64,000 bases of DNA from assembly GCF_009931435.1 (NCBI RefSeq), contig NZ_CP043414.1, one strand, 5' to 3'. The notes below the pieces were generated by a model, which had not been told where the DNA came from, made no database searches, and saw nothing but the letters and a program-made list of their open reading frames with translations. Below are positions 57,212 through 63,149 of this stretch, in pieces. The position numbers and the translations under genes were made by a program. The stretch's first letter is position 1; every line of letters starts with the position of its first letter. The DNA is from Escherichia coli (GTDB lineage: Bacteria > Pseudomonadota > Gammaproteobacteria > Enterobacterales > Enterobacteriaceae).

Positions 57212-59191
57212 ATGAATCGTTTTATTATGGCCAACAGTCAGCAATGTCTGGGTTGTCATGCTTGTGAAATCGCCTGTGTCATGGCTCACAATGATGAGCA
57301 ACATGTCCTGAGCCAACACCATTTTCATCCCCGAATTACGGTTATCAAACATCAGCAGCAACGTAGTGCGGTGACCTGTCACCATTGCGAAGATGCGCCC
57401 TGTGCCCGTAGTTGCCCTAATGGCGCGATCAGCCATGTTGATGACAGCATTCAGGTCAATCAGCAAAAGTGTATTGGCTGTAAATCCTGCGTGGTAGCTT
57501 GTCCATTTGGTACGATGAAAATCGTCCTGATACCCGTCGCGGCAGGCAAAGTTAAAGCCACGGCGCATAAATGCGACCTTTGTGCAGGTCGCGAAAGTGG
57601 TCCTGCCTGTGTCGAGAATTGTCCGGCGGACGCTCTGCAACTGGTCACTGACGCCGCACTTTCCGGCATAGCGAAATCTCGCCGCCTGCGCACCGCACGT
57701 CAGGAGCATCAACCGTGGCATGCCAGTACTGGGGCACCAGAAATGCCGGCGATGAGTAAAGTCGAGCAAATGCAGGCAACCCCCGCGCGAGGCGAGCCGG
57801 ATAAACTGGCGATTGAAGCGCGCAAAACTGGTTTTGATGAAATTTATCTGCCATTTCGCGCCGACCAGGCACAACGGGAAGCCTCGCGTTGCCTGAAGTG
57901 CGGCGAGCACAGCGTTTGTGAATGGACCTGCCCTCTGCATAACCACATTCCGCAGTGGATAGAGCTGGTGAAAGCCGGAAATATCGACGCCGCCGTCGAG
58001 CTTTCTCACCAGACCAACACCCTGCCAGAAATTACCGGACGCGTTTGCCCGCAAGACCGTCTGTGCGAAGGAGCCTGCACCATTCGCGATGAGCACGGAG
58101 CGGTAACTATCGGCAACATCGAACGCTACATTTCGGATCAGGCGTTGGCGAAAGGTTGGCGTCCTGACTTAAGCCATGTCACCAAAGTGGATAAGCGGGT
58201 GGCGATTATCGGTGCAGGTCCGGCAGGGCTAGCCTGTGCGGATGTTCTGATCCGCAATGGCGTGGAGGTGACGGTGTACGATCGCCATCCAGAAATCGGT
58301 GGCCTGCTCACCTTCGGCATTCCTTCTTTCAAACTGGATAAGTCCCTGCTGGCGCGTCGCCGGGAAATCTTCAGCGCGATGGGGATTCACTTCGAACTCA
58401 ATTGTGAAGTGGGTAAAGATGTCTCTTTGGATTCGCTTTTGGAACAATACGACGCGGTCTTCGTTGGCGTAGGCACTTACCGTTCCATGAAAGCGGGTTT
58501 ACCTAATGAAGATGCGCCGGGCGTTTATGACGCGCTGCCATTCCTCATCGCCAACACTAAACAGGTGATGGGACTTGAAGAGTTACCTGAAGAGCCGTTT
58601 ATCAATACCGCCGGACTCAATGTCGTGGTACTGGGCGGTGGCGACACCGCGATGGACTGTGTGCGTACCGCGCTGCGCCATGGCGCGAGTAACGTCACCT
58701 GTGCCTATCGTCGTGATGAAGCTAACATGCCTGGCTCGAAGAAGGAGGTGAAGAACGCCCGCGAAGAGGGGGCAAACTTCGAATTTAACGTCCAGCCGGT
58801 GGCGCTTGAGCTGAATGAGCAAGGTCATGTTTGCGGAATTCGTTTCCTGCGTACGTGTCTTGGCGAGCCGGATGCCCAGGGGCGTCGGCGTCCGGTGCCG
58901 GTGGAAGGCAGTGAGTTTGTGATGCCAGCCGATGCGGTGATCATGGCATTTGGTTTTAATCCTCATGGTATGCCGTGGCTGGAGTCGCACGGTGTAACGG
59001 TGGATAAATGGGGCCGCATCGTAGCGGACGTTGAAAGCCAGTACCGTTACCAGACCACGAATCCGAAAATCTTCGCAGGTGGCGATGCCGTGCGTGGTGC
59101 GGATCTGGTGGTTACCGCAATGGCAGAAGGACGTCATGCGGCACAGGGGATCATTGACTGGCTGGGGGTAAAATCAGTCAAATCTCACTAA
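57212..59191 (+). CDS. aegA: Fe-S/FAD oxidoreductase AegA (GltD-like)
   Basis: 659 aa; N-terminal ferredoxin Cys clusters, C-terminal GltD-like NAD(P)/FAD domain. Confidence 0.93.
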   Translation: MNRFIMANSQQCLGCHACEIACVMAHNDEQHVLSQHHFHPRITVIKHQQQRSAVTCHHCEDAPCARSCPNGAISHVDDSIQVNQQKCIGCKSCVVACPFGTMKIVLIPVAAGKVKATAHKCDLCAGRESGPACVENCPADALQLVTDAALSGIAKSRRLRTARQEHQPWHASTGAPEMPAMSKVEQMQATPARGEPDKLAIEARKTGFDEIYLPFRADQAQREASRCLKCGEHSVCEWTCPLHNHIPQWIELVKAGNIDAAVELSHQTNTLPEITGRVCPQDRLCEGACTIRDEHGAVTIGNIERYISDQALAKGWRPDLSHVTKVDKRVAIIGAGPAGLACADVLIRNGVEVTVYDRHPEIGGLLTFGIPSFKLDKSLLARRREIFSAMGIHFELNCEVGKDVSLDSLLEQYDAVFVGVGTYRSMKAGLPNEDAPGVYDALPFLIANTKQVMGLEELPEEPFINTAGLNVVVLGGGDTAMDCVRTALRHGASNVTCAYRRDEANMPGSKKEVKNAREEGANFEFNVQPVALELNEQGHVCGIRFLRTCLGEPDAQGRRRPVPVEGSEFVMPADAVIMAFGFNPHGMPWLESHGVTVDKWGRIVADVESQYRYQTTNPKIFAGGDAVRGADLVVTAMAEGRHAAQGIIDWLGVKSVKSH

Positions 59192-59258
59192 TAGCCTGCG
59201 CAGACAAATCCGGCTTCACAGCGTAAGATAATTGTTCATTTCGCGCTGTGGAGTCGGT

Positions 59259-59834
59259 ATGACGCAACAAATCACCCTCATCAAAGACAAAATTCTCTCC
59301 GATAACTATTTCACCCTGCACAACATAACTTACGATCTCACGCGAAAAGATGGCGAAGTTATCCGCCATAAACGTGAAGTTTATGATCGCGGTAATGGTG
59401 CGACGATCCTCCTGTACAACGCGAAGAAAAAGACCGTCGTTCTGATTCGTCAGTTCCGCGTCGCTACCTGGGTTAATGGCAATGACAGCGGGCAGCTGAT
59501 TGAAACCTGCGCCGGGCTGCTGGATAACGACGAACCGGAAGTGTGTATTCGCAAAGAAGCGATTGAAGAGACGGGGTATGAAGTTGGCGAAGTCCGCAAA
59601 TTATTTGAACTGTATATGTCGCCAGGCGGTGTGACTGAGCTAATCCACTTTTTTATCGCCGAATACAGTGACAGCCAGCGCGCTAATGCGGGCGGTGGTG
59701 TCGAAGATGAAGATATTGAAGTGCTCGAGCTGCCGTTCAGCCAGGCGCTGGAGATGATCAAAAGCGGCGAAATACGTGACGGTAAGACGGTGTTATTGCT
59801 TAACTATTTGCAAACATCACATTTAATGGACTGA
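59259..59834 (+). CDS. nudK: GDP-mannose pyrophosphatase (Nudix)
   Basis: 191 aa from the ATG at 59259 ([27 protein letters not shown]...); Nudix box [21 protein letters not shown]. Confidence 0.93.
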
Positions 59835-59959
59835 AAAATAACAATAATATTTCGTTGTTTATTATTGGCTCAATCCGATAAATCCGATTGAGCCGCGCTA
59901 CCTGCGCAACGAAGATACGACTTGTGCTGTTTGTTTGAACTTCTGGGGTCGTACCGTCC

Positions 59960-61003
59960 ATGCGCTATCGCATTTTCCTTCTCTTTTTTTTCGCTTTGTT
60001 GCCGACGTCTTTGGTGTGGGCGGCACCAGCGCAACGGGCATTTTCCGACTGGCAGGTCACCTGTAATAATCAAAATTTCTGTGTGGCGCGCAATACGGGC
60101 AATCATAATGGACTGGTGATGACCCTGAGCCGCAGCGCCGGGGCGCATACCGATGCCGTTTTACGTATTGAGCGCGGCGGGTTGAAGTCGCCGGGTGCGT
60201 CGGAAGGGGAGATAGCGCCACGGCTGCTGTTAGATGGCGAGCCGTTGGCGTTGAGTGGTAACACGTGGCGGATTTCACCATGGTTATTAGTAACCGATGA
60301 TACGACAACCATCACCGCGTTTTTGCAGATGATTCAGGAAGGGAAAGCGATCACCTTACGCGACGGCGATCAGACCATTTCACTGAGTGGCTTAAAAGCA
60401 GCGTTGTTGTTTATTGATGCCCAGCAAAAGCGCCTCGGCAGTGAAACCGCGTGGATCAAGAAAGGGGACGAACCGCCGCTCAGCGTACCGCCAGCGCCTG
60501 CGCTAAAAGAGGTCGCCGTAGTGAACCCGACGCCGACCCCGCTTTCTCGTGAAGAACGTAACGATTTGCTGGATTACGGTAACTGGCGGATGAATGGTCT
60601 GCGCTGTTCGCTTGATCCGTTGCGTCGTGAAGTGAATGTGACTGCGCTGACCGACGATAAAGCGTTGATGATGATTAGCTGTGAAGCAGGCGCGTATAAC
60701 ACCATTGATCTTGCGTGGATTGTGTCGCGTAAAAAGCCACTGGCCTCGCGCCCGGTACGGTTGCGTTTACCGTTCAACAACGGTCAGGAGACCAATGAAC
60801 TCGAACTGATGAACGCAACATTCGATGAAAAATCGCGTGAACTGGTGACCTTAGCGAAAGGGCGAGGATTAAGCGATTGTGGCATTCAGGCGCGCTGGCG
60901 CTTTGACGGTCAGCGTTTTCGCCTGGTGCGTTACGCTGCAGAACCTACCTGCGATAACTGGCATGGACCAGACGCCTGGCCCACGTTGTGGATCACCCGT
61001 TAA
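59960..61003 (+). CDS. ypfG: DUF1176 periplasmic protein YpfG
   Basis: 347 aa with signal peptide. Confidence 0.88.
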   Translation: MRYRIFLLFFFALLPTSLVWAAPAQRAFSDWQVTCNNQNFCVARNTGNHNGLVMTLSRSAGAHTDAVLRIERGGLKSPGASEGEIAPRLLLDGEPLALSGNTWRISPWLLVTDDTTTITAFLQMIQEGKAITLRDGDQTISLSGLKAALLFIDAQQKRLGSETAWIKKGDEPPLSVPPAPALKEVAVVNPTPTPLSREERNDLLDYGNWRMNGLRCSLDPLRREVNVTALTDDKALMMISCEAGAYNTIDLAWIVSRKKPLASRPVRLRLPFNNGQETNELELMNATFDEKSRELVTLAKGRGLSDCGIQARWRFDGQRFRLVRYAAEPTCDNWHGPDAWPTLWITR

Positions 61004-61020
61004 ACATAATAGCGGGAACA

Positions 61021-61145
61021 TGTCAGCCTGATAAGACGCGTCAGGCCGGATAAGACGCGGTAGGCCGGATAAGACGCGTCAGCGTCGCATCCGGCAATCA
61101 GCATCCGGCAATCAGCATCCGGCAATCAGCATCCGGCGATCACCA
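61021..61145. repeat. BIME-like composite: three CGGATAAGACGCG-type REP half-units followed by four tandem copies of a 14 bp unit (CATCCGGCAATCAG)
   Basis: Read directly: GCCTGATAAGACGCG, GCCGGATAAGACGCG, GCCGGATAAGACGCG, then GCATCCGGCAATCA x3 plus a GCATCCGGCGATCA variant, in the convergent ypfG/tktB gap. Confidence 0.8.
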
Positions 61146-63149
61146 TCAGGCACCTTTCACTCCCAGTACCTTATGCGCTTTTGCCACAATATTCTCGGCG
61201 GTAAAGCCAAAGAACGGGAACAGCTTATCCGCAGGAGCAGATTCCCCATAACCCGTCATCCCGACAATTGCCCCTTTCAGACCAACATATTTGTACCAGT
61301 AATCGGCGATGCCTGCTTCCACCGCCACGCGAGCCGCAACGTTAGAAGGCAACACAGACTCCCGATATTCCTCATCCTGGGCGTCGAAAATATCGGTCGA
61401 GGGCAGGGAAACTACGCGTACATTGCGACCTTCTCCCGCTAATTTCTCCGCTGCTTGCAAGGTGATTTCCATCTCTGAACCAGTGGCAATCAAAATAATA
61501 TCCGGCTTGCCGCCGCTGTCTTTCAACACATAACCACCGCGGGCAATCTCTTTTACCTGATCTGGCGTACGTTCCACCTGGGCCAGATTCTGTCTTGAGA
61601 GGATCAGCGCCGTCGGCCCGTTGTGACGCTCGACCGCCAGCTTCCAGCCCACCGCAGCTTCCACCTGATCACACGGTCGCCAGGTGCTGAAATTCGGCGT
61701 TAAGCGCAGACTTGCAAGTTGTTCAACCGCCTGGTGCGTCGGACCATCCTCCCCCAGACCAATTGAGTCGTGGGTATAAACCATAATTTGCCGCGCTTTC
61801 ATCAGTGCCGCCATCCGCGCGGCGTTACGGGCGTATTCAACAAACATCAGGAACGTCGCGGTATACGGCACAAAGCCGCCGTGGTGCGCGATGCCGTTGG
61901 CGATGGCGGTCATGCCAAATTCACGTACCCCGTAGTGAATATAATTCCCCGCTGGATCTTCCTTCAGCGACACAGAACCTTTCCAGATGGTGAGGTTGCT
62001 GGGAGCCAGATCCGCCGAACCGCCAAGCAGTTCAGGCAGCATGGGCCCGTAAGCGTTAAGCGTATTTTGCGAAGCCTTACGAGTAGCGATTTTCGCCGGA
62101 TTCGCCTGCAACTCATTGATATATTTCTGCGTCGTTTTTTCCCAGTCTTTTGGTAAACCACCGCTCATCCGGCGAGTAAACTCTTCTGCCAGTTGCGGAT
62201 GAGCCTTTTTATACGCGGCAAACTTCTCATTCCAGCTCTGCTGTGCTTTTTCGCCTTTTTCGCGAGCGTCCCAGGCGTGATAAATCTCTTTGGGGATCTC
62301 AAATGGCGGATGATGCCAGCCCAGTTTTTGCCGTGCCAATGCCACTTCTTCTTCCCCCAGTGGTGCGCCATGCGCCTCTTCCTTACCTGCTTTATTCGGC
62401 GAACCAAAGCCAATCACCGTACGGCAGATAATCAACGACGGCTTATCTTTTACGCTTTGCGCTTCAAGAATCGCTTCCTTCACCGCCTGCGGATCGTGAC
62501 CGTCGATTTCATGGATCACATGCCAGTGATAGGCTTCAAAACGTTTTGCCGTATCGTCGGTAAACCAGCCTTCGGTTTCACCGTCGATGGAAATACCATT
62601 GTGATCGTAAAAACCAATCAGCTTGCCCAGCCCCAGCGTGCCCGCCAGCGAACAGACTTCGTGAGAAATACCTTCCATCAGGCAGCCGTCGCCCATAAAC
62701 ACATAGGTGAAGTGATCGATAATTTCATGATCCGGCTGGTTAAACTGCGCCGCTAGTGTACGTTCTGCTATCGCCAGTCCGACCGCGTTCGCCAAACCTT
62801 GTCCAAGTGGACCGGTGGTGGTTTCAACACCAGGCGTATAGCCAATCTCCGGGTGACCAGGGGTTTTCGAATGCAACTGACGGAAGTTCTTCAGCTCTTC
62901 CAGCGGCAGGTCGTAACCGGTCAGATGAAGCAAACTGTAGAGCAGCATCGACGCGTGACCGTTGGAGAGAATAAAGCGGTCGCGATCATACCAGGTTGGA
63001 TCGGTGGGGTTATGTTTAAGAAAATCGTTCCACAGCACTTCGGCAATATCAGCCATGCCCATCGGCGCGCCGGGATGACCAGAATTGGCTTTTTGTACCG
63101 CATCCATACTGAGCGCGCGAATCGCATTGGCAAGGTCTTTTCGGGACAT
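61146..63149 (-). CDS. tktB: Transketolase 2
   Basis: 667 aa from the ATG at 63149 ([27 protein letters not shown]...). Confidence 0.96.

Follow-up and report, generated by a model that had tools for sequence, protein, structure and literature searches.

An RcsB-box-like palindrome abutting a predicted ypfG promoter in Escherichia coli and other Enterobacteriaceae

Introduction

The DNA box recognized by RcsB homodimers, TN(G/A)GAN4TC(T/C)NA, was established in Salmonella by crystal structures, EMSA and mutagenesis (PMC7913699). Its placement relative to a promoter can be read at rprA, where the MG1655 sequence runs TGAGACGAATCTGA|TCGACG-17-TACTAT-6-A(+1), so that the box spans -49 to -36 and abuts the -35 element. 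At osmC p1/bdm and osmB the box also lies just upstream of a TTGA-type -35 (TAAGATTAGTCCTG-g-TTGATG and TAAGATGATTCCTG-g-TTGATA, respectively), and the osmB and osmC boxes are proven sites with one mismatch to the consensus, a G for A at the last position. A perfect RcsB box is carried by ycfJ. The RcsAB boxes of capsule and rcsA promoters (TaAGaatatTCctA) are usually found far upstream (around -100 or more) and need RcsA, whereas a box abutting the -35 is the arrangement of RcsA-independent promoters.

Palindromes located shortly after a stop codon may also be viewed from the side of the preceding gene, either as intrinsic terminators, in which a GC-containing stem-loop is followed by a U-tract, or as the protective stem-loops described for Rho-terminated transcripts, which are stable, have no U-tract and follow genes without an intrinsic terminator (Dar and Sorek, 2018; PMC6061677). 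Here we analyzed a palindrome between nudK and ypfG of E. coli for which an earlier note, made from the sequence alone, had offered two options, an RNA-stability element or a protein-binding palindrome. Our results favor the second, given a conserved DNA motif, and speak against the first, given an unconserved stem. We consider it likely that the palindrome combines an RcsB operator with the -35 element of an activator-dependent sigma-70 promoter of ypfG. This control element is apparently unannotated, and would be new unless RegulonDB or EcoCyc lists the site.

Results

A Single-Copy Palindrome Between nudK and ypfG

The window, by which we mean the whole 64,000-nt stretch of E. coli DNA analyzed, contains in order aegA (57212-59191), nudK, ypfG, a REP/BIME cluster and, on the minus strand, tktB. 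The gene preceding the palindrome, nudK (59259-59834, + strand), encodes a GDP-mannose hydrolase according to its gene call and protein identity, and ypfG (59960-61003, + strand), the gene that we propose to be regulated, encodes a DUF1176 protein with a signal peptide; the names previously given to the two genes were thus correct, nudK being of the NUDIX type. The palindrome itself, GGCTCAATCCGATAAATCCGATTGAGCC, occupies 28 bp at 59867-59894, without assigned strand. It folds in silico into a hairpin of 9 bp, a C·C mismatch and 2 further bp closed by the loop UAAA (TAAA in DNA), with + strand and - strand energies of -14.1 and -16.0 kcal/mol (z about -5.8 and -5.4, respectively); none of 200 shuffles folded equally well. 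Sequence and fold therefore confirm the near-perfect 12-bp stem with one mismatch that had been described, beginning 33 nt downstream of the nudK stop codon (59832-59834).

In being a GC-containing stem-loop soon after a stop codon the palindrome resembles an intrinsic terminator, but it lacks a U-tract and its stem is not conserved. The sequence directly 3′ of it, GCGCTACCTGCGC, is GC-rich and has no T-run, and a terminator scan reported no terminator at the site, in keeping with the earlier judgment that the hairpin is no classic intrinsic terminator.

A search for inverted repeats (arms of 12 nt or longer, no more than one mismatch) gave 15 matches at 9 places in the window, compared with a mean of 1.15 matches in 20 dinucleotide shuffles of it. 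Could the palindrome be one of chance, or a member of a REP/BIME-like repeat family, without specific function? REP/BIME repeats do occur nearby, at 61010-61140. However, membership in such a family would need many dispersed copies, and the palindrome was found once in the 64-kb window and at one place per E. coli genome; shuffled sequence yields about one such repeat per window; and conservation of the palindrome far exceeds that of the flanking sequence, both between genera and in loci with YpfG identity as low as 43%. Conservation and copy number refute this explanation, to which we give almost no credence, and it was rejected.

Variation within E. coli was limited. At this locus, strain 2013C-4282 and the window do not differ (100% identity), and a 251-nt region around the palindrome is present with at least 95% identity in 5425 of 5426 complete E. 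coli genomes. Across five strains compared, the palindrome varies solely at the first loop base (59879), where the window strain has T and K-12, LF82 and others have C; the T allele is carried by 417 of the 5426 complete genomes and is the commoner state in other genera. This polymorphic base falls within the unspecified N4 of the RcsB box described below. Among 5427 places at which the nudK-ypfG region was located, one belongs to a record that is labelled a plasmid, and in one genome there are two such places, which may reflect a mis-assigned replicon or a duplication.

Several features of the neighborhood were recorded along the way. Directly after the nudK stop, 59836-59866 is AT-rich, with a weak hairpin (CAATAATA/TATTATTG) and the sequence ATATTTC(T/G)TT, whose fixed position, some 26-27 nt before the box, is conserved in no genera other than Escherichia, Citrobacter and Salmonella. 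In E. coli strain G5 (locus L004, 1751-2448) an IS1A is inserted directly after the nudK stop, at the equivalent of window position ~59835, and spares the AT-rich region, the palindrome and the predicted ypfG promoter. The REP/BIME-type cluster separates the stop codons of the convergent genes ypfG and tktB and contains tandem GCATCCGGCAATCA copies and GGCCGGATAAGACGCG repeats; it gives sub-threshold Rfam matches to naRNA4 (RF02564) on both strands (39.2 and 28.6 bits, gathering score 59.5). A Term-seq 3′ end antisense to ypfG maps to about 60959 on the - strand, which is K-12 position 2581778 on the + strand (Adams et al., 2021), and the convergent tktB transcript thus seems to run past the REP cluster and to stop about 45 nt into the ypfG reading frame.

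A Promoter-Like Unit Conserved Across Genera

Eighty nudK loci were fetched, one genome per species, and ypfG follows nudK in 77 of them. What is conserved in Enterobacteriaceae is the inner and right part of the palindrome, TCCGAYAAATCYKA, followed by TTGAGN, while the left arm is essentially restricted to Escherichia; the conservation check that had been proposed for this family thus holds for one part of the palindrome and fails for the other. The common pattern is a nearly invariant block, ATCCGAYAAATCYGATTGAG, then 17 nt of free sequence, then GAAGATAC, followed by the ypfG translation start region. Among 73 unique sequences, G4, A5, A8, T10, C11, A14, T15, T16 and G17 of the block are invariant, and T1, C2, A18 and G19 are changed in at most 2. 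The variable positions of its first 14 nt are 3 (C/T), 6, 7, 9, 12 (C/T only) and 13 (G/T).

These first 14 nt form an RcsB-box-like 14-mer, TCCGATAAATCCGA (59874-59887, + strand), a putative operator that is present in 79 of 79 loci with ypfG and would lie at about -49 to -36. It is directly followed by TTGAGN in 78 of the 79; in the window this is TTGAGC (59888-59893, + strand), the right outer arm of the palindrome, which we predict to be the -35 of the ypfG promoter based on its conservation and on its abutting the box. The sequence xAxxAT occurs exactly 17 nt past TTGAGN in 74 of the 79 loci, and 16 or 18 nt past it in the others, being GAAGAT in 62. In the window the spacer is 59894-59910 (+ strand), conserved in length and free in sequence (0.1-0.7 bit per column), and GAAGAT at 59911-59916 (+ strand) is predicted to be a weak -10, matching the consensus at 3 of 6 positions, with A2 and T6 kept. 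A hexamer close to TTGACA and a hexamer with A2 and T6, held 17±1 bp apart with conserved spacing across a gap of free sequence, are together the hallmark of a sigma-70 promoter. Given where the -10 lies, the ypfG start is predicted to fall within 59921-59926 (+ strand; about 2582811-2582816 on the minus strand of K-12 MG1655), near 59923.

This predicted promoter was missed by a consensus promoter scan, which did not flag the ypfG GAAGAT, because the -10 is weak. Weak -10 elements are typical of activator-dependent promoters. The non-consensus bases of GAAGATAC are themselves strongly conserved. No start site was present in the interval (K-12 25828xx) in the Cappable-seq and SMRT-Cappable-seq supplements, and in the searchable literature we found no start site, EMSA, footprint or ChIP data for the ypfG promoter. 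A resemblance of TCCGATAA to a sigma-28 -10 (7 of 8 positions) was rejected, as it has no conserved -35 partner. We also rejected a candidate structure in the ypfG 5′ UTR (ACGAC/GUCGU in E. coli, covarying with GCCCC/GGGGC in Enterobacter): RNAalifold applied to 28 diverse leaders returned 2 pairs only and no compensatory change, and the 5′ partner of the suspected stem is probably located upstream of the start site.

The Conserved Unit Is Linked to ypfG Rather Than to nudK

The box is absent from the loci that do not have ypfG, namely L008 (E. albertii) and L051 and L052 (Pluralibacter). In the E. albertii locus the flanks survive (GGCTCA-CTCCGG-TTGAAC ... AATGAATATACG) and the box is deleted, which looks like decay of a regulatory site following loss of ypfG. 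In Klebsiella and Raoultella, the intergenic region is 71-85 nt long, with the box overlapping the stop codon or the final codons of nudK.

More distant YpfG homologues were obtained by a representative-library search, as a word-indexed search gave relatives of at least 75% identity only. In front of distant ypfG homologues the box was found at a distance of about 85-115 nt, also in loci where nudK is not adjacent. At 50% YpfG identity (L091 and L092) the unit is intact, TCCGACAAATCTTA|TTGAGC-17-GAAGAT; at 46% (L093 and L094) it reads TCCGATAAATCTGA|TTGAGG-17-CATGAT and is located 113 nt before ypfG and more than 600 nt after nudK; and at 43% (L095), in a locus with other neighbors and no nudK nearby, TCCGATAAATCTTA|TTGAGT-18-CAGGAT is found 103 nt before ypfG. 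Three loci with YpfG identities of 40-41% (L096-L098) lack the unit. Judged from this distribution, the conserved unit belongs to the predicted ypfG promoter and not to the nudK 3′ end. In Buttiauxella (L082-L084) the ypfG leader has an insertion of about 140 nt between promoter and start codon, approximately 60-200 nt downstream of the -10; its core, CCCAGGTCACTTACTTATGTAAGCTCCCTGGG, seems to resemble an ERIC repeat.

The Stem Is Not Conserved as an RNA Structure

The same palindrome, if transcribed from nudK, could act as a 3′ UTR hairpin: after Rho-dependent or unspecific termination downstream, exonucleases would trim the transcript back to the stem, which would then protect the nudK mRNA. 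In a variant of this explanation, the stem would pause or terminate transcription without a U-tract. The stem is strong enough for such a role (-14.1 kcal/mol, z -5.8), it is located 33 nt past the nudK stop, and there is no intrinsic terminator between nudK and ypfG. Moreover, the 7 outer pairs are not required by the RcsB box, would arise by chance with a probability of 4^-7, and persist in every E. coli examined, in neighboring Escherichia species and in one Kluyvera-like genome.

Comparative data, however, point away from RNA. Of 69 unique sequences, just 4 fold at -10 kcal/mol or lower in the segment equivalent to the hairpin; outside Escherichia the stem collapses (median -3.0 kcal/mol). 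In an alignment of 54 sequences, 69.0% of cells were paired, compared with 69.8% in shuffles, and the covariation score was 0.044, compared with 0.049 in shuffles, with no compensatory change; five of the seven outer pairs, the non-conserved ones, were unpaired in 43, 27, 37, 29 and 33 of these sequences. The right arm, being the predicted -35, shows no variation. The conserved part moves into the coding end of nudK in Klebsiella and Raoultella and is far from any nudK in L093-L095. An Rfam search of 59000-61300 with E-values up to 10 returned only chance-level matches at the hairpin, to plant and animal microRNA families with E of about 5. Mapping of nudK 3′ ends by Term-seq, the other check that had been suggested, did not place one here: there is none among the ends listed by Adams et al. 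(2021), although nudK may be too weakly expressed. According to these alignments, the palindrome is not a conserved RNA structure. It shares stability, lack of a U-tract and a gene without intrinsic terminator with the protective 3′ stem-loops described by Dar and Sorek (2018), but differs from those of Rho-terminated transcripts in that its conservation tracks the DNA motif and not the structure, and in that no mapped 3′ end was found (PMC6061677). We therefore hold a nudK 3′ UTR hairpin to be decidedly unlikely as the explanation of the element; an Escherichia-specific role of the stem in nudK mRNA could nevertheless exist alongside promoter function.

The strong 12-bp stem exists because, in Escherichia only, the 7 bp to the left of the box mirror the -35 region. 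This left outer arm, GGCTCAA (59867-59873, no strand assigned), reads TTGAGCC on the - strand, and GGCTCA is found essentially in Escherichia and in a few Kluyvera-like genomes. The extension is possibly a by-product, for example of template-switch “correction” of a quasi-palindrome, or possibly a protective 3′ stem for the nudK mRNA. It also creates, on the - strand, a promoter-like TTGAGC-18-TATTAT running from 59873 to 59844 (9 of 12 matches), with the -10 TATTAT at 59849-59844. If a single RcsB dimer on the symmetric box fired in both directions, it would drive ypfG and a stress-induced antisense transcript through nudK, which could start near 59837 (K-12 ~2582900, + strand). GDP-mannose feeds the synthesis of the colanic-acid capsule, which is switched on by Rcs, and Rcs-driven antisense silencing of nudK, a GDP-mannose hydrolase, would be physiologically sensible if true, albeit speculative. 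Because promoter-like matches of this kind are common by chance (2.1 expected in the 2.2-kb region), we regard such a divergent promoter as highly improbable. The Escherichia left arm makes a second, overlapping match to the RcsB consensus as well, TTGGCTCAATCCGA at 59865-59878, which has 1 mismatch, is offset by 9 bp from the conserved box and shares TCCGA with it; it is Escherichia-specific, and such matches are common.

Comparison With Known RcsB Sites and Other Regulators

The sequence TCCGATAAATCCGA matches 7 of the 8 specified positions of the RcsB consensus. This consensus is weak, with 27 sites of at most one mismatch in the 64 kb, and the match by itself is no more than suggestive; a match at that exact position would occur by chance with a probability of roughly 10^-3. 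In every one of the 79 loci with ypfG the 14-mer has exactly 1 mismatch, and the sole deviation is always a C or T at position 3, where the consensus has G or A. Variation between species sits at the degenerate positions of the consensus, namely the N4 spacer, Y12 (C/T only) and N13; its fully specified positions (T1, G4, A5, T10, C11 and A14) are constant in the 79 loci.

The closest counterpart is rprA. In both cases a 14-bp pseudo-palindrome of the T-N-R-GA-N4-TC-Y-N-A type abuts the -35, at ypfG with the box ending at 59887 and the predicted TTGAGC starting at 59888; a spacer of 17 nt and a sigma-70 -10 come next. The two sites are near-identical in the right half of the box and at the junction (AATCTGA|TCGACG in rprA, AATCYGA|TTGAGC in ypfG), and in both the gene downstream is induced by Rcs-activating stress. 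Unlike at rprA, position 3 of the ypfG box is a pyrimidine in all species, the -10 is much weaker (GAAGAT as opposed to TACTAT) and the start is a predicted one, and in Escherichia the palindrome extends 7 bp to each side. The location of the box just upstream of a TTGA-type -35 is shared with osmC p1/bdm and osmB, which differ in having one extra base between box and -35; the single mismatch of the proven osmB and osmC boxes is also located elsewhere, at the last position rather than at position 3. The ypfG box has the GA-N4-TC core of RcsAB boxes, and its right half, TCCGA, is common to the Salmonella rcsA site TAAGGTTTATCCGA; unlike RcsAB boxes, it abuts the predicted -35.

Alternatively, the site may be an operator for another DNA-binding protein, such as an RcsB heterodimer (RcsA-RcsB or another FixJ/NarL-type partner), H-NS, Fur or an uncharacterized regulator recognizing CWATCCGAYAAATCYGATTG. 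In favor of such a protein, the pyrimidine at position 3 is at odds with the consensus for RcsB homodimers in 79 of 79 loci, and in most genera the symmetry reaches 3 bp past the box (C-2, A0). For H-NS, CCGATAAATC matches the high-affinity motif (tCGATAAATt) at 8 of 10 positions, but the core of this match is broken in K-12 (GACAAATC) and in Citrobacter (GACGATTC) with the flanking invariant bases retained. The H-NS motif was rejected since the conservation pattern does not support it. For Fur, a box upstream of ypfG has been predicted computationally (PMC4145685). The best match to GATAATGATAATCATTATC, at 11 of 19 positions, nevertheless equals the background mode and falls within the non-conserved, AT-rich intergenic part, and ypfG responded to complement and not to iron-poor inactive serum; the Fur box was rejected because its match is at background level. 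Co-regulation of ypfG with osmB, ycfJ, ypeC and bdm, together with its dependence on rcsB, points to RcsB or an RcsB-containing complex, and we consider an operator for another protein to be unlikely.

Published Expression of ypfG Follows an Rcs Pattern

Published transcriptomes place ypfG among genes that respond to Rcs activation. A LolCDE inhibitor raised ypfG 38-44-fold, among the most induced genes, together with osmB, ycfJ, bdm, wca, ypeC, ivy, mliC, yjbEFG and rcsA (PMC5105897), so that two of the genes with comparable box positions, osmB and bdm, are co-induced with it. As nudK is missing from this list, the induction of ypfG arises between nudK and ypfG. In an O157:H7 isolate with disrupted rcsB, ypfG was 4.6-fold down (p = 9e-9), and ycfJ and ypeC were 25-fold and 24-fold down (PMC5343319). 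Active serum, but not heat-inactivated serum, induced ypfG, ycfJ, ygaC and fepE (PMC4145685); what ypfG responds to in serum is thus the attack of complement on the envelope rather than iron limitation. During RP4 conjugation, ypfG and ypeC were among 13 genes that responded in two recipient species. Cpx and RpoS also come into play under the LolCDE inhibitor and complement, and only the rcsB-disruption data are therefore specific. Taken from this literature, expression of ypfG depends on RcsB and Rcs activation, an effect that may be indirect.

Discussion

The arrangement described here suggests how ypfG would be switched on. Envelope damage would lead the Rcs phosphorelay to phosphorylate RcsB, a dimer of which would bind the box at 59874-59887, centered near -42.5, and contact RNA polymerase at the adjacent -35, TTGAGC. 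RcsB would in this way recruit or activate polymerase at TTGAGC/GAAGAT and turn on ypfG, as at rprA.

Some observations fit this RcsB-dependent promoter less well. The box is never perfect, having C or T at position 3 in every species, and can also be read as a direct repeat, with two copies of AATCCGAT at 9-bp spacing; the consensus has low information, and the -10 matches at only 3 of 6 positions. The conserved non-consensus bases of GAAGATAC and the 7-bp extension in Escherichia are not accounted for by it either.

An RcsB-type operator for ypfG would be ordinary gene control and would not surprise specialists. The locus illustrates that a strong hairpin past a stop codon can be merely the palindromic operator of the next gene. 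If confirmed, the site would show that a pyrimidine at position 3 of the RcsB box is tolerated, and the published computational placing of ypfG in the Fur regulon would be corrected. A deeply conserved, promoter-proximal site would also join the small set of well-defined RcsB-activated promoters, and there would be a direct mechanism for the control of ypfG, a y-gene that encodes a secreted DUF1176 protein and whose induction under envelope stress is among the strongest.
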